Positions 9,865 through 44,896 of a DNA stretch of 64,000 nt are shown here, piece by piece. The position numbers were made by a program, and so were the translations under genes. This DNA is from Candidatus Saccharimonadales bacterium (GTDB taxonomy: Bacteria; Patescibacteriota; Saccharimonadia; QS-5-54-17), in assembly GCA_040903985.1 (NCBI GenBank), contig JBBDUI010000002.1, positions 671,469 through 735,468 of the forward strand, in the 5' to 3' direction. The stretch's first letter is position 1. Each line of letters starts with the position of its first letter. Under the pieces are notes generated by a model. That model saw only the letters and a list, made by a program, of their open reading frames with translations. It did no database searches and was not told where the DNA came from.

Positions 9865-10146
9865 ATGGCTAACGCTAAAACTCCGAGCGAGAAAGACTAT
9901 GCCCGTCTCGGCAAGACACTTGAGAAAGTGCTCCTGCAGTATAATTTACAGGTTACGCGTCACTGGGGTAAGTTTATCGCACTTAGTTTTGTCCGGGGTC
10001 TTTTTATGGGTCTAGGTAGCATTATCGGCGCTACCTTGCTAGTAGCACTCATCGTTTGGTTACTTAATATTTTTGGTGGTCTACCGGTTTTCGGTGAGTG
10101 GTTCGATGCTCTGCGCGAATCGATCCGGCAATCTTCGACTTCCTAG
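9865..10146 (+). CDS. small membrane protein (93 aa), third gene of the DUF948/YtxH cluster
   Basis: Intact ORF with a central TM helix, in tight spacing with the two preceding genes. Confidence 0.5.
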   Translation: MANAKTPSEKDYARLGKTLEKVLLQYNLQVTRHWGKFIALSFVRGLFMGLGSIIGATLLVALIVWLLNIFGGLPVFGEWFDALRESIRQSSTS

Positions 10147-10354
10147 CTACCTCATTTTCGTTGCTAAGGTTATGTAGCTGGAACAAAGTAAATTTCTAGA
10201 CTTAGATTGAAAATCACGACTATAATCGTAGTGACACCTAGAATGACTGCGGTTTAAGAACCGGGCCGGTGAAGCTAGAGATGATACAATAGAGCGTAAG
10301 CATGTGAGGTGCCAGTTCAAATAAGACGGCACAGCGAAAATTAACAGGAGCGCT

Positions 10355-13300
10355 ATGTCTGTAAACAGTTTTAAACCGGCCGATTTTGTCCATCTACACA
10401 ACCATACCCACTACAGTTTGTTGGACGGTTTGCAGAAAGTGCCGGAGATGCTGGATCGAGTGGTGGAGTTGGGCATGGAGGCGGTCGCGATTACCGACCA
10501 CGGCACCTTAAGTGGTGTAATCGAATTTTATAAAGAGGCGAAAAAGCGGGATGTGAAGCCGATCATCGGTATCGAAACCTACGTGGCCCCACGTAAACAT
10601 ACCGATAAGGAGGGCAGGAAAGACGCCAGTCCTTACCACCTTATCCTGCTAGCTATGAACAATCAGGGTTACGAGAATCTAATGCGCCTCTCTACCGTAG
10701 CCCACCTAGATGGTTTTTACTATAAGCCGCGCATCGATCGGGAGTTACTAGAGAAATACAGTGCGGGAATCATCGTGCTCTCCGGCTGCATTGGTGGTGA
10801 GGTCGGGGAGGCCCTGCGCAACGATCGCGATACAGAGGCGGAAGAGACGGCCAAGTGGTACCAGTCGGTTTTTGGTGATCGCTACTATCTCGAGCTGCAG
10901 GATCACGGCCACGAATGGTCGGAACAGGCACGGGTGAATGACAAGTTGCTTAAATTGGGTAGTCGGCTTGGTATCGAGCTGGTGGTGACAGCCGACGCCC
11001 ACTATTGTTTGCCAGAGGATCAGGCAGCTCATGAGGTGCTGCTCTGTGTGCAGACCGCCTCGCAACTAAGCGATACTAGTCGGATGAGTCTCAAAGACAT
11101 GCATCTCTATGTTACGGAACCGGAGCAGGTCGCCGTGCGTTGGAGCGATAATCTGGCGGTGCTTACTAATACTCGAGCTATCGCTGATCGGTGTGAGGTT
11201 GAGATCGAGCTGGGCGGGATTTTAATTCCGCGCTTTGACACGCCAGAGGGTGAGAGTGAGAAGGACTATCTGGCTAAACTGGCTTATCAGGGGCTGGTTT
11301 GGCGCTACAGTGAGCGGACAATTAAAGAGGCGGCACAGTTGACGATTGAAGAGATTAAACAGTTACTGGAACCAGACATCATCGAGCGCTTCGAGTATGA
11401 ACTGGGTGTAATTAACAGCATGGGCTTTGCCGGCTATTTCTTAATCGTTTCCGATTTTATCCAGTGGGGTAAGTCGGAGGGCATTATTTTTGGTCCAGGT
11501 CGGGGATCGGCTGCCGGTTCAATCGTCTCCTATGCGTTGAATATCACTGACCTCGATCCTTTGAAGTACGATCTACTATTTGAACGATTTCTCAACCCAG
11601 ACCGGATTTCGATGCCGGATATCGATATTGACATTCAGGACACGCGGCGAAACGAAGTAATCGATTATACGATTGCTAAGTATGGCGCCGACCGGGTGGC
11701 CAATATCGTTACGTTCGGTACGATGGCAGCGCGAAATGCTATTAGAGATACGGCCCGAGTCTTAGGTGTACCGTACGGTGATGCCGATCGGCTCGCGAAG
11801 ATGATTCCGCCTCCGGTTCAAGGTCGTCACATACCGCTCAAGCGAAGTCTAGTAGATGTCGATGAATTGAAGGCGGAGTACGCCGGTAATCCGCAGTCGA
11901 AGAAAGTTTTCGATCTGGCGGTGAGGCTGGAGGGAACTATCCGTTCTCATGGTGTCCATGCTGCCGGAGTCGTGATTGCACCGGATGAGATAGTTAAATA
12001 CACTCCACTCGAGATGGCCCAAAAGGGGGTAGTCTCGACCCAATATCCGATGAATCCGATAGAAGAGCTAGGACTTTTAAAGATGGACTTTCTCGGTCTG
12101 TCTAACTTAACGATTATTAAAAACGCACTGCGGATCATCCGTAAGGTGCATGAGGTCGAGATCGATATCTCAAGTATTCCCATGGATGATACGAAGACAT
12201 TCGAACTGTTCAGTCGGGGTGATACTACCGGCGTTTTCCAGTTAGAGTCGGCCGGTATGAAGCGTTATCTTAAACAGCTGGGCCCGAACCAGTTTGAGGA
12301 TATTATCGCGATGGTCGCACTATATCGTCCCGGTCCGATGGCCGAACTACCTCGCTATATCGAAGGAAAGAACAAACCGGATAAGGTCACCTACCCACAT
12401 AAGTCACTAGAGCCTATCCTGGAAGATACTTATGGGGTGATGGTCTACCAAGAGCAGATTATCGCTATGTTGCAGTTGATCGCCGGCTATACAGCTGGCG
12501 AGGCCGACCTGGTCCGTAAAGCGATTGGTAAGAAAAAGCGTGAGATCATGGAGGCCGAAGAGCCCAAGTTTATCCAGGGCTGTATTAAGCAAGGGCTAAG
12601 TGAAGAACAGGCCAATGGTCTCTGGGCTTTAATCCAACCTTTCGCTGACTATTCCTTTAATAAGTCCCATGCCGCATGCTATGCACTGATTGCATATCAA
12701 ACGGCTTATCTCAAGGCTCATTATCCATCCGCATTCATGGCGGCGTTGATGACCAGCGATTTCGATGACGCCGATCGGATTGCTATCGAGATTGCCGAGT
12801 GCCGTCATATGGGAATCGACGTACTCCCACCAGATGTGAACGAGAGCTTCGTCGAGTTTGCCGTGCGTCCGCATGAAGATAATTCTGGCCGGAGGGCTAT
12901 CCGGTTTGGCCTTAGTGCAGTTAAGAACGTCGGTATTGGGGCAGTAGAAGAGATTTTACGAGCGCGGGAGGAAGGTAAGTTTAATTCGGTCGAGGACTTT
13001 GCTAAACGGGTCTCGGTCCGGAGTGTTAATCGTAAGGCGTGGGAATCATTGATTAAGGCGGGCGCATTCGATACTTTAGGCGATCGAGCTATTTTCCTTC
13101 TTAATCTCGATAAGATCGTGGCCTTTGCTCAGCGACTACAGAAAGATGCGGCCAACGGCCAGACCGACCTATTTGGTGACTCAGTGGTCGATACTTCATT
13201 GCAGCCACGACTCGACCTCGATACGCCCCAAGAGAAGCTAAACGAACGGGAGTACTTGCAGTGGGAGCGGGAGCTACTGGGTGTTTACTTATCTTCGCAT

Positions 13301-27582: not shown

Positions 27583-28824
27583 ATGGACGGAACGATGGAC
27601 ACCAAACAATTTATTATGACGATGAAACAGATCGCCGAGGAGAAGAATCTGCCTTATGAGGTAGTTGAGGATGCTCTGCAGCAAGCGATTGCGGCGGCTT
27701 ATCGTAAGGATTATGGCGAGCGGGAACAGAACGTGCGAGCCGAGCTAAACGCTAAGACCGGTGAGTTCACTATTTTCATCGTCTATGACGTAGTCGATGA
27801 GGTAGAGGATGAGTACACTCAGCTTGATCTAAAAAGCGCTCAGCAGAAAGACAAAATGGCCGAGGTCGGAGGCGTGGTTGAGGAGCAGGTTAGCTACGAC
27901 GGCTTCGGTCGGGTAGCCGCTCAGACCGCCAAGCAAGTTATCCTACAGAAACTGCGGGAAGCTGAGCGCGACGTTGTGTTCGCTGAATACCAGGACAAAG
28001 TCGGGACCATCCTAAACGGTACCGTACAGCGGGTCGAGCCGCGGGTGGTCTATATTGATGTCGGTAAGGCCCAGGGTATCCTACCCCAATCAGAACAGAT
28101 TCAGGGTGAGCATTATCGTGCTACTCAGCGTCTCAAAGTCTACCTTCGTGAAGTAGAGAGTTCACCCCGCGGACCGCAGTTGATTCTCTCCCGGGCTACG
28201 CCAGATTTCGTCGCGTTGCTCTTTGCCCGAGAGGTGCCGGAAATGGAGAGCGGTGCGGTTGAGATTCGGGCAATTGCTCGTGAGGCCGGCGTGCGCACTA
28301 AGCTAGCGGTTGCCTCTACTGTGCCGAATGTCGATCCGGTCGGTACCTTTGTTGGTGGTCACGGTACCCGAGTGCAAGCCGTCATGAATGAAGTTGGTGA
28401 GGAAAAGATCGACATCATCATGTTTGCTGAAGACACCGCTACTTTCATCACTAATGCACTGGCGCCGACTCAGATTAAAAACGTCAAGCTAGATGAAGCC
28501 GAGCAACGTGCTATCGTCGAAGTGGCCGAAGACCAGCTCTCAATTGCGATCGGTAGAGCCGGTCAGAACGTTCGCTTAGCTTCAAAATTGACCGGCTGGC
28601 AGATCGACATCATTAGTGAAGGTGGAGAACTGCGTACGCAATCTAAACCGGCTGAGCCAATAGTTAAGCCGGAGCTAGATGCGACCGCTGCTACTAAGAA
28701 GCCGGCCAAATCGGTACCAGAGAAGACACCGGAACGGAAGAAGAAATACGTCACTAAGGCCCAGCTGGAAGCTTCATTACTGGAGTCACTCAGCAACGGC
28801 AGCGATGCCTCCGAGGAAGAGTAA
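27583..28824 (+). CDS. nusA: transcription termination/antitermination factor NusA
   Basis: N-terminal NusA domain, S1 and KH regions (GGHGTRVQAV). An AAGGAG RBS is present. Confidence 0.9.
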   Translation: MDGTMDTKQFIMTMKQIAEEKNLPYEVVEDALQQAIAAAYRKDYGEREQNVRAELNAKTGEFTIFIVYDVVDEVEDEYTQLDLKSAQQKDKMAEVGGVVEEQVSYDGFGRVAAQTAKQVILQKLREAERDVVFAEYQDKVGTILNGTVQRVEPRVVYIDVGKAQGILPQSEQIQGEHYRATQRLKVYLREVESSPRGPQLILSRATPDFVALLFAREVPEMESGAVEIRAIAREAGVRTKLAVASTVPNVDPVGTFVGGHGTRVQAVMNEVGEEKIDIIMFAEDTATFITNALAPTQIKNVKLDEAEQRAIVEVAEDQLSIAIGRAGQNVRLASKLTGWQIDIISEGGELRTQSKPAEPIVKPELDATAATKKPAKSVPEKTPERKKKYVTKAQLEASLLESLSNGSDASEEE

Positions 28825-28851
28825 ATACGGAGCCGAGGCTGCTCACCTTAA

Positions 28852-28878
28852 TTAGCACTCTTGACCATTGAGTGCTAG
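28852..28878 (+). promoter_or_regulatory. CIRCE element (HrcA operator) overlapping the -35 of the clpC promoter
   Basis: TTAGCACTC-ttgaccatt-GAGTGCTAg matches the CIRCE consensus TTAGCACTC-N9-GAGTGCTAA at 17 of 18 positions. It is followed by TATAGT. Confidence 0.7.
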
Positions 28879-28946
28879 CTGGCCTATAGTAGAAAGTGGT
28901 GACAGCCGTGACGATTCGATACAATATATAGGTATAGGGGGTCCAT

Positions 28947-31442
28947 GTGGACGAGCAATTTTTTGAAGATAATTTAACTGAAAATGCGCAAGCTAGCTTG
29001 GCTCAGGCGAATGAGATCGCTCGAGCGTTGGGTAGCACTTATATTGGCACCGAACACATTCTACTTGGTGTGTTGCGTCAGAATAGTTCTATAGGAGCTA
29101 AGGTATTAAAAAACTCCGGCGTAACCTTTGACAAGGCGCGTTTAGCGCTGAGTTTGACCCCGAAGTCACTACAGAATCTCGAGGGCCAAACCCTGACTTC
29201 TCGAGGTCTGAACGAAACAGCTAAGTTAACGTTAACGCTGTCGTGGAAAATCGCCCGAGATTTCGGACAGAAGATGTGCGGTACTGAACACATTCTATTT
29301 GCCACTCTGAGTCAGAAGAATACACGGGCTACCATCTTGCTCCGCGATATGGATATCGACTTAAGTGAGGTGCGCGAAGAGCTACAGGAATATTTGCGCA
29401 ATCAGCAGTACCACTATGAAGAACACACAAAACAGCGACGAGCTCGGAAGAAGAGTAAGACACCAACTTTGGATTATTTCGGTATAGATCTAACCGCGCA
29501 GGCCGAGGCCCGCAAATTGGATCCAGTAATCGGTCGCAGTGGTCAGATTCAGCGTATGGTGACGATCCTTAACCGGCGGACTAAGAACAATCCGGTTCTA
29601 ATCGGTGACCCCGGCGTGGGTAAGACAGCTATTGTAGAGGGTTTGGCACAGAAGATAGTGACGGAGGATGTGCCCCAAGATTTGCTAGATAAGCGTATCG
29701 TAGCGCTCGATCTCTCTAGTGTAATCGCCGGCACTAAGTATCGCGGTGAGTTTGAAGAGCGTTTGAAGCGGATATTAGAGGAACTACAAAGTGTGGATGA
29801 CATCATTCTCTTTGTGGATGAACTGCACTTAATCGTTGGAGCCGGTGCAGCTGAGGGGGCTATCGATGCCGGTAATATACTCAAACCGGCTCTAGCTCGC
29901 GGTATGATTCAGGTTATCGGGGCTACTACGACCGATGAATACCGTAAACACATTGAAAAAGATGCTGCCTTAGAGCGGCGCTTCCAAACTATTATCGTCC
30001 CGGAAACGACGACTGAAGAGACACTTCAGGTGCTACGGGGATTACGGAGTCATTATGAGAAGTATCACCGAGTGAAGATCAGTGACGATATCATCGCCGA
30101 AGCCGTTAAGTTGTCTCGGCGCTATCTACCCGACCGTTTCATGCCGGATAAGGCGATCGACCTGATTGACGAAACTGCGGCTCAGGTGCGGGTCTTACGG
30201 GGCAGCGAGACCGGTAGCGAGTCGCGCGAAATACGGGCCCAAATTCGAGAACTTCATACGGCCGTCGATGAGGCAGCCACGGATGAGAATTATGAGCAAG
30301 CTGCTCGCCTGAAGACCGAGATTAGTATGCTGGAGCAGAAACTAGAGCGGCAGGAGGCGGCCGAGGCTAGAAACGGTGAAGTACTAGAAGTGACCGATGA
30401 AGACTTGGCCGAGGTGATCTCGACCATTACCGGTGTACCGCTCAAGCGGTTAGTTAAGTCGGAAGCTCGTCAGTTAATTAACCTTGAGCGCACCTTACAG
30501 AAGTCGGTTATCGGTCAGGAAGAGGCAGTGAATGCCGTAGCTCGAGCCATTCGTCGAAATCGGTCCGGAGTGGCCGACGCGCGCCGCCCAATCGGCTCCT
30601 TCCTTTTTCTGGGGCCTAGCGGTGTTGGTAAGACTGAGTTAGCTCGGGTACTATCGCGTGAGCTCTTCCATTCTGAGGATGCTCTGATAAAGATAGATAT
30701 GAGTGAGTTTATGGAGCGCCATAATATGTCACGCCTCTTAGGCGCACCGGCCGGCTATGTCGGTTATGAAGAAGGAGGTCAGTTAACGGAGAAGGTTCGT
30801 CGTCAACCTTACTCACTAATTCTTTTCGATGAGATTGAGAAAGCCCATCCGGATGTATTTAATATGTTGTTACAAATTCTCGAAGACGGTTCCGTCAGCG
30901 ATGCCCAGGGTCGTCGGGTAGACTTTACTAATACCGTTATCATCATGACCTCTAACATCGGTGCCGAGTGGCTACAGAAAGAAGCGGTACTTGGTTTCAG
31001 GCCTGCTACCGATGATGCGCAGGATCTTGCTGGCTATCACGAGCAGGTGGCCACTCGCGTCAAGGAGGATCTAAGTAAGCAGATGCGTCCTGAGTTGTTA
31101 AATCGGATTGATAAGATTATCGTCTTCAAGGCGCTGAGTCGTCCAGAGGTAAAGCGTATTCTTAAGTTGCGTATTACCGAGCTGGAGCGTCGCTTAAGTG
31201 AGCAAGGACTAGGCATAATCTTTACCAATAGTGCTCGTCGCCACCTAGTAGAGGCCGGTTATGAGCCAAGCATGGGGGTACGACCACTACGCCGAGCCAT
31301 TGAGGAAATGGTGGAAGACCCGATTGCTACCAAGCTCTTAAGTGATGAGTTTAGTAGTGGTGATGTCATTCGGGTCAGCGCGGAAGCTGGCGAGTTGAAG
31401 TTTAGTTTAGTGACTGAGGAAGTGGTGACTAGCAAGAAGTAA
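28947..31442 (+). CDS. clpC: ATP-dependent Clp protease ATPase subunit ClpC (Clp/Hsp100 with two AAA+ modules)
   Basis: It has Clp_N repeats and two Walker A sites (GDPGVGKT and GPSGVGKT), with a UVR-like linker between the AAA domains. Confidence 0.9.
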
Positions 31443-31513
31443 CTTCATGGCTTCTACCGACGCACTGGGGTTCAGTGCGAGCTAGTCTGCGAGTTGCTAT
31501 ACTGAAATCTATG

Positions 31514-32455
31514 AAGAGACGCATATTAGTAGTTACGGTACTAACACTATTCCTAGGACTAGCCTGGAACCACCAGGCAGTAGTGGACTGGTGGTTCTTA
31601 CGTAGTTATGATCCTCCTCAAGAGGTAGAGACGCTAGCTGATAGCTCATATTTCAGTGAGACCGGGCGGCGTCTGTTCTATCTGTCCGACCCTGCCGTGA
31701 ACGACAAACAAGAGTTTAACATCAACTGTCCGATTTTTGAGAAAAGCTATGTTTTGGGTTGCTACTCTCAGCAGCGCATATATATTCTCGAGGTAGAGCG
31801 GCAAGAGCTTGAGGGCATTATGGAGGTAACGGCGGCGCACGAGATGCTACACGCCGCCTATGATCGGTTAAGTACGCGAGAACGTGATCGCGTGGTTGAG
31901 CAACTAGAAGCGGCCTATGCTGATATCGACAACGATAAGTTACGGAGCTTAATTCGCAGTTATGAGGAGACAGGGGGTGAGAGTGTTCGTCAAAACGAAT
32001 TACATTCAATTATGGCGACTCAGGTCATCGAGTTGCCAAATGAGATAGAGACTTACTACGGTCAGTATTTCAGTGATCGTCAGGCAGTAGCCGAAATCTA
32101 CGCCGAGTACGAAGGTGTATTTAGCGAATTGAATCGTGATATAGATCGCCTGCAAGCCGAAGTCACCGCAGTGCGGGATCAGTTGGCCAGTTTGGAAGAC
32201 CAGATTGTGACTACTCGAGCTGAAGTTGATGGGCTAAATCGCGAGATGAGTCGGTTGGAGGACGAAGGCGAGATTGCGGCCTACAACCAGCTCGTCCCCC
32301 GGCAAAACGCCGCGGTTGATCGTTATAACGGCTATGTCGATCAGTATCGCGGACTAGTCAGTCGGCATAACCAGTTAGTCGATGGGCTTAACCGTACCGT
32401 GTTGTTGCAAAAGGATCTAGTCAACAGCTTGGATAGCAAGTTCGAGTCGCTGTAG
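31514..32455 (+). CDS. membrane-anchored hypothetical protein with an HEMLH motif and a C-terminal coiled coil
   Basis: The start was chosen at MKRRILVV, the signal anchor; the ORF track begins at 31475. An HEXXH-like motif (AAHEMLHAAY) and a long heptad-repeat region are present. Confidence 0.5.
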   Translation, partial: KRRILVVTVLTLFLGLAWNHQAVVDWWFLRSYDPPQEVETLADSSYFSETGRRLFYLSDPAVNDKQEFNINCPIFEKSYVLGCYSQQRIYILEVERQELEGIMEVTAAHEMLHAAYDRLSTRERDRVVEQLEAAYADIDNDKLRSLIRSYEETGGESVRQNELHSIMATQVIELPNEIETYYGQYFSDRQAVAEIYAEYEGVFSELNRDIDRLQAEVTAVRDQLASLEDQIVTTRAEVDGLNREMSRLEDEGEIAAYNQLVPRQNAAVDRYNGYVDQYRGLVSRHNQLVDGLNRTVLLQKDLVNSLDSKFESL

Positions 32456-32538
32456 GAACTTAGGGGTATGGGGTAGATGCTACTCGTGGTCAGCAGCCTA
32501 CTTAATACTGTATAACAAATACTCTATACTGATCTTAT

Positions 32539-33867
32539 ATGGCTAAAACGATATTCGTCTGTCAGGAGTGCGGCACTACTGCTCCGCGGTGGAGTGGTAA
32601 GTGTAGTGGTTGCGGAAACTGGAACACTTTAATCGAGGAAGTAAAGAGTGGTGGCTCTAGGGCGGGTAGTTCCGTTAGTGCGCGCGCAACGCAGAAGTTA
32701 GCTGATATCCCGGACACACAAGCCGTCGGTCGACTCGATACTCAAGTTACAGAGTTAAACAAGGTTTTCGGTGGCGGGATTGTACCCGGCAGCATCACTT
32801 TACTGGCGGGAGAGCCGGGAGTGGGCAAGTCGACTCTGCTACTGCAGTTAGCGGCTAATCTCGCTGTCAACCATAAGGTGCTCTACGTTAGTGGTGAGGA
32901 GTCACTACAACAGATTAAGCTTCGAGCTGAACGGCTTAAGCTGCGGGAGGTTAAGCTTGAGCTACTGGCCGAGATCGATATCGATACTATCGCCGCTACA
33001 CTGAAGCACGGCCAGTATGATTTCGTTGTAATCGATTCGGTTCAGACCATGCAGACCAGTGAGTTGAGTGCTAGCGCCGGTACCGTGAGTCAGATTACGG
33101 CCAGTACCCATCGTCTACAGAGTGTGGCCAAGGCCAGTCAGACCGCTGTACTAGTAGTTGGCCACGTGACCAAAGAAGGTAACATCGCCGGCCCGAAAAT
33201 TCTCGAGCATCTGGTAGATGTAGTGCTCTATCTCGAAGGTGAACGTTTTGGTAGCTTCAAACTACTGCGGGGGGTGAAGAATCGTTACGGCTCCACCCAT
33301 GAGGTCGGTATCTTTGAGATGGAAGAAGGTGGGATGGTGCCGGTAGATAATCCTTCAGCCCGTTTTCTGCAGGAGCGTGCACCTGGAGATGGTTCAGTGG
33401 TCTTGGCTACGGTAGAAGGGACCCGGGCTTTACTGGTCGAGGTTCAGGCCTTAGTGAGTACTAGCCCTTTTGGTTACCCCAAACGTACGGCGGCTGGTTT
33501 TGATCTTAATCGACTCAATTTATTAATAGCGGTTTTAGGCCAGCGGGCCGGTATAAAACTCGCCGACAAGGATGTCTATATTAATATTGTTGGTGGTATG
33601 AAGCTGGTCGAGCCGGCCGCTGACCTAGCTGTCGCACTAGCGATTGCTTCAGCCGCTAAGCGCCAGCCGCTAGTTGATGGACTGGTGGTTTTCGGGGAGG
33701 TCGGACTTAATGGTGAGATTCGTTCAGTGAGTGACACCGCTAAACGAGTGAAAGAGGCGCGGAAATTGAAATTCAAATCTGCGCTAGCTCCATCTGGCAC
33801 CAATGCAGAGTACATAGAGGCTGTGGTTACGCTCAAAGAGGCGATTAAACGAGGGCTAGTTTCTTAA
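32539..33867 (+). CDS. radA: DNA repair protein RadA/Sms
   Basis: N-terminal zinc ribbon CQECG...CSGCG, a RecA-like Walker A (GEPGVGKST), the KNRYG motif and a Lon-like C-terminus. Confidence 0.95.
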   Translation: MAKTIFVCQECGTTAPRWSGKCSGCGNWNTLIEEVKSGGSRAGSSVSARATQKLADIPDTQAVGRLDTQVTELNKVFGGGIVPGSITLLAGEPGVGKSTLLLQLAANLAVNHKVLYVSGEESLQQIKLRAERLKLREVKLELLAEIDIDTIAATLKHGQYDFVVIDSVQTMQTSELSASAGTVSQITASTHRLQSVAKASQTAVLVVGHVTKEGNIAGPKILEHLVDVVLYLEGERFGSFKLLRGVKNRYGSTHEVGIFEMEEGGMVPVDNPSARFLQERAPGDGSVVLATVEGTRALLVEVQALVSTSPFGYPKRTAAGFDLNRLNLLIAVLGQRAGIKLADKDVYINIVGGMKLVEPAADLAVALAIASAAKRQPLVDGLVVFGEVGLNGEIRSVSDTAKRVKEARKLKFKSALAPSGTNAEYIEAVVTLKEAIKRGLVS

Positions 33868-42914: not shown

Positions 42915-44237
42915 GTGAATGTTAAAGTAAATCGCACCAAAGACGAAGTTGTCATTAATATTACCGCTAACACCGATGAGTTAGCTCCGACGGTTAAATC
43001 TACCTTTAACCGACTCCGCGGCAGTGTTTCTGCTAAAGGATTTCGCCCGGGCAAGGCCCCAAATAACATCATCGAACGCGAGCTAGGCGCCGAACAGGTT
43101 CAGGCCGAAGTAATCGATGCTGCAGCGGAGAAGTTTTACCGTCAGGCTTTGGTCGAACACGATATCCGTCCCATTGCTAATCCGCATGTCGATGTGAAAA
43201 AATTTGTTCCCTACACCGAACTGGAGCTGGAAGTAAAAGTAGCTGTCATGCCTGAGGTTAAGCTAGGTGATTATAAGAGTATTTCGAAGAAACCGCCCGA
43301 GGCCGAGGTGAGTAGCGTCGAGGTTGACGAAGTTGTAACTACCATTCGCGATCGATTGGCCGAACGTCAAGAAGTCGAGCGGGCCGCCCGCGAGGGCGAT
43401 GAGGTCGTAATTGACTTTCATGGTCGTAAGGACGGAGCCGATGTAGCCGGGGCTCAGGCTCAGGATTACCCCTTGCTGCTAGGTAGTAATCGTTTTATAC
43501 CGGGTTTTGAGACCGAATTAGTTGGGCTTAAATCGGGTGAAGAGAAAGTGTTTAAGATTAAGTTTCCGGTCGAATACGGTGAAGCTTCATTAGCGGGTCA
43601 GGAAGTCGAGTTCAGTATTAAGCTACATAAGGTAACTGAACTCATAGCGCCAGAAGTTAATGACGAGCTAGCTAAAAATGCCGGTCCGTTTGAGAGCTTA
43701 GCGCAGCTTCGTGACGATGTAACTGCTCACTTGAAGAGTGAGAAGGAGCAAGGGTTGCAACGAGAGTTTGAGAACACAGTGATTGAGGCCGTGGTTGAAT
43801 CAGCCAAAGTCGAGTTACCTCAGAGCATGTTGGCTGCTGAACGCGAACGCATCGCCGCCGATTTCGACCGTAGCCTTACCGAGCAAGGTCTAACTGAGGA
43901 TGAGTACCTCAAGCAAACCAAACAGACTGAGAAGCAACATCAGTCTGCTTTGGATGAGCAAGCCGAGCGGCGGGTTAAGACTGCCCTAGTACTAACTACT
44001 GTAGCTGATGCTGAAGCTATCGAGATCACCCCGGAAGAGTTGGAGATCAGATTGCAAGTGTTAGCCGGTCAGTATCAAGACGAGAAAGTTCAAGCCGAGC
44101 TACAGAAGCCGGAAGTCCGTCGTGAGATTGCTAACCAGATGCTAGCCGAGAAGACGGTAGCTAAGCTAGTAGAATATGCTACCGGCGTACCCGAGTCTGA
44201 CCAAGCGGATAAATCTACCTCGCCTAAGACCAAGTAG
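42915..44237 (+). CDS. tig: trigger factor
   Basis: GTG start. N-terminal ribosome-binding domain with the GFRPGKAP motif, an FKBP-like middle and a C-terminal arm. Confidence 0.9.
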   Translation: MNVKVNRTKDEVVINITANTDELAPTVKSTFNRLRGSVSAKGFRPGKAPNNIIERELGAEQVQAEVIDAAAEKFYRQALVEHDIRPIANPHVDVKKFVPYTELELEVKVAVMPEVKLGDYKSISKKPPEAEVSSVEVDEVVTTIRDRLAERQEVERAAREGDEVVIDFHGRKDGADVAGAQAQDYPLLLGSNRFIPGFETELVGLKSGEEKVFKIKFPVEYGEASLAGQEVEFSIKLHKVTELIAPEVNDELAKNAGPFESLAQLRDDVTAHLKSEKEQGLQREFENTVIEAVVESAKVELPQSMLAAERERIAADFDRSLTEQGLTEDEYLKQTKQTEKQHQSALDEQAERRVKTALVLTTVADAEAIEITPEELEIRLQVLAGQYQDEKVQAELQKPEVRREIANQMLAEKTVAKLVEYATGVPESDQADKSTSPKTK

Positions 44238-44256
44238 AGGTAAGGAGTGGGTAGTT

Positions 44257-44283
44257 TTAGCACTCTTGACTCTGGAGTGCTAA
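44257..44283 (+). promoter_or_regulatory. perfect CIRCE element (HrcA operator) overlapping the -35 of the clpP promoter
   Basis: TTAGCACTC-ttgactctg-GAGTGCTAA equals the CIRCE consensus. TTGACT lies inside it and TACAAT lies 18 nt downstream. Confidence 0.75.
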
Positions 44284-44302
44284 GGTAGCTACAATTAATA
44301 CT

Positions 44303-44896
44303 ATGATTATGCCCACTAACCAGATTCTAATACCCACAGTGCTAGAGAAAACGCACAACGGCGAGCGAGCCTATGATATTTACTCGCGCCTACTAAAAGA
44401 CAGCATCATCTTTCTTGGTACTGCAATCGATGATCATGTCGCTAACCTAGTGGTAGCGCAACTGCTGCACTTATCTCATGAGAACCCGAAGAAAGACATT
44501 AAGCTTTATATTAACAGCCCGGGCGGTAGCGTCAGTGCTGGGATGGCGATTTACGACACGATGCAGTTTATTAAACCGGCCGTATCTACTATTAACGTCG
44601 GTATGGCGGCTAGTATGGCGGCGATTTTGCTAGCTGGTGGTGCGCGTGGTAAGCGCTTAGCTTTACCACACTCGCGGGTGATGATTCACCAACCTTCACA
44701 TGGTTTCGAAGGCACAGCTTCCGATATAGAGATCAGCGCTCGGGAGACTATCCGCATTAAGGAAGAGCTGATTAAGCTGTTTGCTAAGGATACTAAAAAG
44801 ACAGTAAAGACCGTTGAGCGCGATATGGATCGTGACAAATGGATGACAGCCGATGAAGCGCTTAAGTACGGGGCTATCGACACGATCATTAAATAA
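44303..44896 (+). CDS. clpP: ATP-dependent Clp protease proteolytic subunit
   Basis: The sequence [22 protein letters not shown]...[19 protein letters not shown] contains the Ser/His/Asp triad context. Confidence 0.95.

Follow-up and report, generated by a model that had tools for sequence, protein, structure and literature searches.

CIRCE-type operators around the -35 elements of predicted clpC and clpP promoters in Saccharibacteria

What regulates the genes of the Clp protease in Saccharibacteria, and is a 27-bp inverted repeat found upstream of one of them part of the answer? To our knowledge, gene regulation in the Patescibacteria (CPR) is almost unexplored; among the studies of Patescibacteria, CPR or TM7 that our literature search listed, none mentions HrcA, and the only co-mention of HrcA with Saccharibacteria was in unrelated work on Enterococcus faecalis. 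The repeat lies in a 64-kb stretch of DNA (hereafter the window) of a Saccharimonadales metagenome-assembled genome, and the initial annotation had described it as a CIRCE element on the clpC promoter, one of two near-identical operator-promoter modules at clp genes whose recurrence it ascribed to selection and coordinated regulation rather than chance. Here we argue that the repeat is probably a functional operator for the repressor HrcA, placed around the -35 of clpC, and that an equivalent module exists at clpP; on the sequence evidence set out below, we put the probability of this reading at roughly 0.8.

Nested operator and promoter elements at clpC and clpP

The clpC-side site occupies positions 28852-28878 (forward strand, as are all features of the window described here) and consists of a TTAGCACTC arm, a TTGACCATT spacer and a GAGTGCTAG arm. 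It departs from the CIRCE consensus (TTAGCACTC-N9-GAGTGCTAA) at the final base only, agreeing at 17 of 18 arm bases, and ends 68 nt 5' of a gene for a ClpC-type ATPase. A perfect copy (18 of 18 arm bases; TTAGCACTC-TTGACTCTG-GAGTGCTAA, 44257-44283), 15.4 kb away, precedes clpP, and the gap between the arms is 9 nt at both sites. In each case CIRCE encloses the -35 of the predicted sigma-70 promoter of a protein-quality-control gene: the first six spacer bases are the -35 hexamer (TTGACC at 28861-28866 for clpC, TTGACT at 44266-44271 for clpP), and the -10 begins 6 nt after the right arm, at a spacing of 18 nt from the -35 (TATAGT at 28885-28890 and TACAAT at 44290-44295, respectively). Both promoters score 10 of 12 against the sigma-70 consensus in a consensus promoter scan. 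The placement of the clpC element and its overlap with TTGACC, with TATAGT 18 nt further on, were therefore correctly described, and an alignment of the two promoter regions bears out the near-identity claimed for the modules and their separation of some 15 kb: arms (bar the one base noted above), -35 at spacer positions 1-6, 18-nt spacing and -10 placement are all identical.

These two sites are the only CIRCE matches with at most three mismatches in the window, against an expectation of 0.03, and none of 100 dinucleotide-preserving shuffles contained two or more matches. Two further motifs were tried and rejected. The CtsR box (RGTCAAA-NAN-RGTCAAA) gave five three-mismatch matches against 3.6 expected, none of them near 28.8 or 44.2 kb, which excludes CtsR-type control. 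A relaxed chlamydial HrcA motif (TAGCA-N15-TGCTA) gave five matches against 2.3 expected, and the extra matches (10017, 27396 and 42044) lack the GCACTC core and are attributed to chance; one of these (10017-10041) lies in the intergenic region that precedes the gene for DNA polymerase III alpha, and is probably meaningless.

The identity of the gene downstream of the first site is clear from its domain content and from alignment to solved structures, and the earlier gene call was right: the 831-aa open reading frame at 28947-31442, which starts with GTG, encodes a ClpC-type AAA+ unfoldase and is on these grounds clpC. Its product contains two Clp_N domains, AAA, AAA_lid_9, a UVR motif seated in a short middle domain, AAA_2 and ClpB_D2-small. 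Its best full-length matches in the PDB are ClpC of Staphylococcus aureus, ClpC of Bacillus subtilis and ClpC1 of Mycobacterium tuberculosis, whereas ClpB aligns to it piecewise only. In the alignment to S. aureus ClpC, an LGF tripeptide falls opposite the AGF loop, which we take to be the ClpP-docking loop. The identical protein is also encoded on contig JBBDOY010000002.1 of assembly GCA_040876815.1.

The 5' neighbor of clpC is nusA, and no ctsR, mcsA or mcsB gene lies upstream of clpC in the window. Its 3' neighbors are a 326-aa coiled-coil open reading frame (31475-32455), which begins 32 nt past the clpC stop codon and has weak coiled-coil Pfam hits only, and then radA/sms (32539-33867; TIGR00416 at 3.9e-159), and the adjacency of clpC and radA is kept in relatives. 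A terminator scan found no convincing terminator at the junction between clpC and the 326-aa frame. With no terminator between clpC and the two genes that follow, the coiled-coil frame is possibly co-transcribed with clpC and radA is possibly the last gene of the unit; a weak promoter-like site lies at 32502-32530, 5' of radA. In one relative (locus L209), radA directly follows clpC with no intervening frame, so that the 326-aa frame would be an insertion, specific to the present lineage, into the putative clpC operon.

The second gene, clpP (44303-44896; 197 aa; NF001368 at 2.6e-92, TIGR00493), lies in the order hisS-tig-clpP-rpoB, and the clpP/rpoB junction contains a weak hairpin that resembles a terminator, together with a new promoter-like site. 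The clpP ATG follows the -10 by only 7 nt, which excludes a Shine-Dalgarno sequence for want of space, and the clpP mRNA is for this reason probably leaderless. The NCBI annotation of clpP begins two codons downstream (195 aa). The 3' flank of the window runs into ribosomal-protein operons.

Conservation of the operator-promoter unit among relatives

Conservation at clpC was assessed on the best 80 ClpC loci in species-representative genomes, each taken with 3-kb flanks; all 80 are Saccharibacteria/TM7 metagenome-assembled genomes whose ClpC is 54-61% identical to that of the window. Scanning up to 300 nt upstream of clpC with at most three mismatches and the 9-nt spacer fixed, we found CIRCE in 72 of the 80 species, or 73 when a locus in which the contig end cuts the site (L018) is included. 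Two loci (L016, L062) are not evaluable, and two (L076, L078) clearly have no clpC CIRCE. In three others (L055, L072, L073) clpC directly follows nusA behind a Shine-Dalgarno sequence and has no promoter of its own; in L055 and L072 a CIRCE lies upstream of nusA in this nusA-clpC operon (1515-1541 and 1391-1417, respectively), and L073 shares the junction and has no readable nusA upstream region. Within this sub-clade the gene for the transcription factor NusA would come under HrcA control.

A scan of 733 kb of named Saccharibacteria DNA from relatives gave 82 CIRCE matches; each precedes clpC, clpP, hrcA or nusA-clpC, and coding sequence in these 733 kb contains no match. Outside the arms, the clpC intergenic region is conserved at less than 0.4 bit per position, bar a few A/T positions that flank the arms; the arms themselves reach 1.3-2.0 bit, a value inflated by the choice of sites for their similarity to the consensus, so that the detection rate of 73 of 80 is the unbiased statistic. 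Substitutions that preserve the palindrome at arm positions 1/27 and 3/25 number 4 against about 1-2 expected, a slight excess to which we attach no weight, the sequences being phylogenetically non-independent.

Might the two sites nevertheless be chance matches, or copies of a generic dispersed repeat? The small size of the motif is the one point in favor of this explanation, and we regard its probability as close to negligible: two matches were observed where 0.03 were expected, both at promoters of functionally linked genes, the clpC site is conserved in 73 of 80 species, and the relatives' DNA contains no coding copy. The geometry of the modules, the motif scan (with no third site in the window) and the conservation at clpC together favor selection and coordinated regulation over chance, as had been proposed.

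The promoter nested in the operator is conserved along with it. A TTGAC occurs in the spacer of 61 of the 72 clpC sites (at offset 1 in 37, offset 2 in one, offset 3 in 15 and offset 5 in eight), and in every one of these a TAnnnT hexamer follows it after 16-19 nt. Of the remaining 11 sites, ten carry TTGCA, TTGAT, TTGTG or TTGCC in the spacer, leaving L040 (spacer TCAACCCCT) with no -35-like TTG. The distribution of distances from TTGAC to TAnnnT peaks at 16-18 nt (21, 17 and 24 cases) over a background of about 1-6 at most other distances, and a further spike at 9 nt is the TAA that closes the right CIRCE arm. Because the -10 shifts in step with the -35, the comparison across species is good evidence for the nested TTGAC being a genuine -35 and for operator and promoter forming a single selected unit.

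The same covariation bears on the possibility that the repeat acts as RNA, either as a hairpin that terminates or stabilizes the nusA and tig transcripts or as a stability element in a 5' untranslated region. A stem of 9 bp with a 9-nt loop could form in RNA, and both repeats lie just 3' of a gene on the same strand. However, the repeats have no T-tract, no terminator-like site was called at 28400-29400 or 43900-44700, and the intergenic sequence folds no better than its shuffles (z = -1.46), observations on which an intrinsic terminator was rejected. Moreover, a spacer -35 whose position covaries with that of the -10 puts the repeat upstream of the predicted transcription start and hence outside the clpC and clpP mRNAs. 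We consider a function in RNA very unlikely, and the DNA operator remains our preferred reading.

Three metagenome contigs (L186, L192 and L203) contain a CIRCE with the spacer TTGACAAAA. A canonical-type HrcA follows it both in L186, where it is 358 aa long, and in L192, where the open reading frame is cut at 53 aa; L203 ends before any readable downstream frame. These contigs are probably from Firmicutes (streptococci), and judging by them the design with the -35 in the spacer is probably found outside Patescibacteria as well.

Conservation at clpP, which lies about 13 kb from clpC and hence beyond the 3-kb flanks of the 80 clpC loci, was assessed on seven looked-up loci and eight metagenome contigs. 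Among contigs that could be used, the four whose ClpP is closest to that of the window (L205-L208; 74-80% identical, synteny hisS-tig-clpP-rpoB-rpoC) all have a CIRCE ahead of clpP, with 2, 0, 1 and 3 mismatches, and with spacers that begin TTGAC, TTGAT, TTGCT or TTGAA; in L205-L207 (around 9980-10003) the clpP ATG lies exactly 7 nt past the -10, as in the window. Three more distant loci (L210, L211 and L212) have no clpP CIRCE. In L210 (ClpP 70% identical) clpP begins 26 nt after tig and has a Shine-Dalgarno sequence, and L211 is named Pacebacteria. With the site present in four of the four closest relatives and in none of the three more distant ones, the clpP CIRCE is, on these loci, a clade-level feature and not a universal one. 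The proposed check of whether CIRCE is conserved at the two genes thus comes out positively for clpC in 73 of 80 species and for clpP in the closest relatives, and negatively for clpP in the three distant ones. The composite operator also occurs upstream of clpP in the eight metagenome contigs (from the scan described in the next section), whose ClpP is only 55-60% identical to that of the window, and in five of these eight the first possible clpP start lies 6-9 nt after the -10.

A separate observation concerns L212 (GCA_030647465.1; ClpP 67% identical), in which several direct repeats of TTTGACAT(T) lie upstream of clpP at 2900-2990. Their sequence is similar, though not a match, to the CtsR heptad repeat in reverse complement; a different clp regulator may bind there.

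HrcA in Saccharibacteria and its candidate regulon

The repressor itself is encoded next to clpC in some relatives. Two loci named Saccharimonadales or Saccharibacteria (L010 and L028) have the order nusA, CIRCE, hrcA (237-239 aa), CIRCE, clpC, with hrcA at 905-1618 and 1635-2354, respectively; L209 has the order nusA, CIRCE, hrcA (10001-10720), grpE, CIRCE, clpC, radA. In the window the nusA-clpC gap measures 122 nt (28825-28946; compare 9805-11457 in L209) and, as in most other species, holds neither hrcA nor grpE. Searches with several HrcA forms (tblastn) did not find hrcA in the window or in a 10-kb 5' extension of it, 74 kb in all, and the extension contains no CIRCE either. Because hrcA is absent between nusA and clpC here, it must lie elsewhere in the genome or be missing.

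Were it missing, the two CIRCE copies would be non-functional relics around constitutive promoters. A loss of this kind is suggested by the presence of hrcA (with grpE in L209) in the nusA-clpC interval of three relatives, where just 122 nt remain here, and by its absence from the 74 kb of the source genome that were read. Yet hrcA is absent upstream of clpC in 78 of the 80 species loci, and CIRCE is still kept in 73 of the 80, so that the normal place of hrcA is elsewhere in the genome. Furthermore, both copies in the window are perfect or one base off, whereas unselected 18-base palindromes should decay, and across the order HrcA is both very common and strongly conserved: a homologue search with the L010 protein returned 8000 matches, the best 120 of which are 82-99% identical to it, far above the conservation of ClpC relative to the window protein. 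Among these homologues, several bear the name 'heat-inducible transcriptional repressor' or originate in Saccharimonadales. Relic operators are consequently unlikely in our judgment, and we infer that the source genome encodes an hrcA gene outside the region read.

HrcA of these relatives is short, at about 237 aa (235-245), compared with about 340 aa for characterized HrcA. It matches Pfam PF01628 and PF03444, the HrcA C-terminal domain scoring above the gathering threshold and the winged-helix domain being matched, and PF01628 is covered in its second half only. Residues 2-122 align to residues 16-132 of Thermotoga maritima HrcA (PDB 1STZ), and the rest aligns weakly, from residue 233 onward; the unmatched region is presumably the inserted dimerization domain. 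From this alignment gap and the partial coverage of PF01628, saccharibacterial HrcA appears to have no inserted dimerization domain. An AlphaFold model built on a 24-sequence alignment is of low confidence, with a pTM of 0.36 and a pLDDT of 45 that stays below 50 throughout the C-terminal two thirds.

The wider use of the composite operator was surveyed by scanning metagenome contigs for TTAGCACTC-TTGAC-N4-GAGTGCTAA, which gave at least 120 contigs, carrying no taxonomy; the sample is biased, since perfect arms and a TTGAC in the spacer were required. A first downstream open reading frame of at least 50 aa is present in 108 of these contigs. Among the matches listed, it encodes HrcA in 39 contigs (mostly 217-245 aa), DnaK in 23, Clp ATPases of ClpC and ClpB type in 10, ClpP in eight, GroES in five, Zn-ribbon (FmdB-like) proteins in four, Hsp20 in two, and DnaJ and GroEL in one each; the 15 unclassified cases comprise one two-member family and 13 singletons. 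This gene set is coherent and is such as would be expected of an expanded HrcA regulon for proteostasis. The four FmdB-like proteins (Zn_ribbon_8; 98-113 aa) are encoded directly behind the composite CIRCE (in L088, L091, L117 and L144), and such a protein would be an unexpected candidate member of the HrcA regulon. Behind the same operator, several hrcA starts lie 4-9 nt after the -10, and dnaK leaders measure 35-90 nt.

A different regulator, or group-specific factors associated with RNA polymerase, might bind the palindrome in place of HrcA. The assignment to HrcA is made from sequence, and HrcA in this group is atypically short, which leaves room for such an alternative. Against it, the arms agree exactly with the operator consensus of HrcA, the same motif precedes hrcA, dnaK, groES and groEL as in the classical autoregulated HrcA regulon, and the winged-helix DNA-binding domain of the short form aligns well to that of T. 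maritima HrcA (in the 2-122 to 16-132 alignment given above). Binding by a factor other than HrcA is, in our assessment, distinctly unlikely.

With HrcA as the preferred ligand, we infer the following sequence of events. In unstressed cells an HrcA dimer on both arms would mask the -35 that lies between them and exclude RNA polymerase, so that binding of the sigma-70 holoenzyme would be blocked by classical promoter occlusion; this binding mode is assumed for the atypical short form. In the classical model, GroEL keeps HrcA active, and titration of GroEL by unfolded proteins inactivates it. GroEL titration would accordingly be the trigger if that model applies here: as unfolded proteins accumulate, HrcA activity would be lost, the clpC and clpP promoters would open, and the ClpC unfoldase and ClpP peptidase would be induced alongside the chaperone genes, the coiled-coil frame and radA possibly being induced with clpC.

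Because the arrangement of CIRCE and clp genes is kept across the group, Saccharibacteria probably control the Clp protease with the chaperone repressor. A single conserved repressor would then tie the ClpCP degradation machine to the chaperones by means of a compact promoter-operator module. This provides a concrete candidate regulon for a phylum of ultrasmall, host-dependent bacteria and would extend the known HrcA regulon; the module is also a candidate stress-responsive promoter for the newly tractable Saccharibacteria. A broader hypothesis, to which we would give even odds, is that the short HrcA (~237 aa, no dimerization domain) is the single master repressor of hrcA-grpE, dnaK, groES/EL, clpC, clpP, clpB and hsp20 in Saccharibacteria and apparently other Patescibacteria/CPR, acting through promoters with the -35 inside CIRCE, often on leaderless mRNAs, and replacing CtsR, ClgR or sigma-32 circuits. 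If true, these episymbionts would possess a minimal, one-regulator heat-shock system.

Comparison with known heat-shock circuits

In other phyla, clp genes are controlled by CtsR, ClgR or sigma-32, and HrcA/CIRCE appears, from the features described above, to fill this role in the present lineage. The Firmicutes CtsR regulon comprises the ctsR-mcsA-mcsB-clpC-radA operon and clpP, and clpC and clpP of B. subtilis are class III (CtsR) genes. The modules studied here resemble this regulon in the genes concerned (clpC with radA, and clpP) and in a repressor that would occlude a sigma-70-type promoter; they differ from it in that the heptad direct repeat is absent near both promoters and in that nusA, rather than ctsR-mcsA-mcsB, precedes clpC. 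The CIRCE of B. subtilis sits downstream of the -10 box or of the transcription start, whereas CIRCE here surrounds the -35.

CIRCE and HrcA constitute the class I heat-shock system, which typically controls groESL and hrcA-grpE-dnaK(J) (PMC3842655, PMC545781). The sites in the window share with classical CIRCE the 9-N9-9 inverted repeat, the consensus and the location at a promoter (PMC3842655, PMC545781), and, as in the classical system, the hrcA gene of relatives carries its own operator and the chaperone genes share the motif in metagenome contigs. Unlike the classical class I targets, the genes concerned here are clpC and clpP. In delta-proteobacteria, groESL is the sole constant HrcA target, supplemented by dnaK and rpoH; sigma-32 governs the clp genes (PMC545781).

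Precedents for CIRCE/HrcA at clp genes are clpP of Streptococcus salivarius, under dual control by CtsR and HrcA (Chastanet & Msadek 2003, as cited in PMC3842655), and clpL of Lactobacillus gasseri, under HrcA control according to a mention in PMC3192767. These are isolated cases in Firmicutes that also have CtsR, whereas here, with no CtsR box, CIRCE is the sole recognizable operator at clpC and clpP alike over most of a clade of order level. A closer parallel is offered by the Mollicutes, whose HrcA regulons include lon, clpB and dnaK, with the arrangement tig - CIRCE - lon in Mycoplasma pneumoniae (PMC7737663), and with CIRCE at clpB and lon in Spiroplasma and M. gallisepticum (PMC5138195). 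The likeness lies in HrcA/CIRCE at genes for AAA+ proteases or disaggregases in small genomes with few regulators, and tig - CIRCE - clpP here parallels tig - CIRCE - lon of M. pneumoniae (PMC7737663); the differences are the phylum, ClpC and ClpP instead of Lon and ClpB, and the short HrcA. As in the Mollicutes, genome reduction in Saccharibacteria would go together with the entry of protease genes into the HrcA regulon. The operator and its logic are textbook and call for no new mechanism; the module is an ordinary CIRCE-family element found at targets outside the canonical set.
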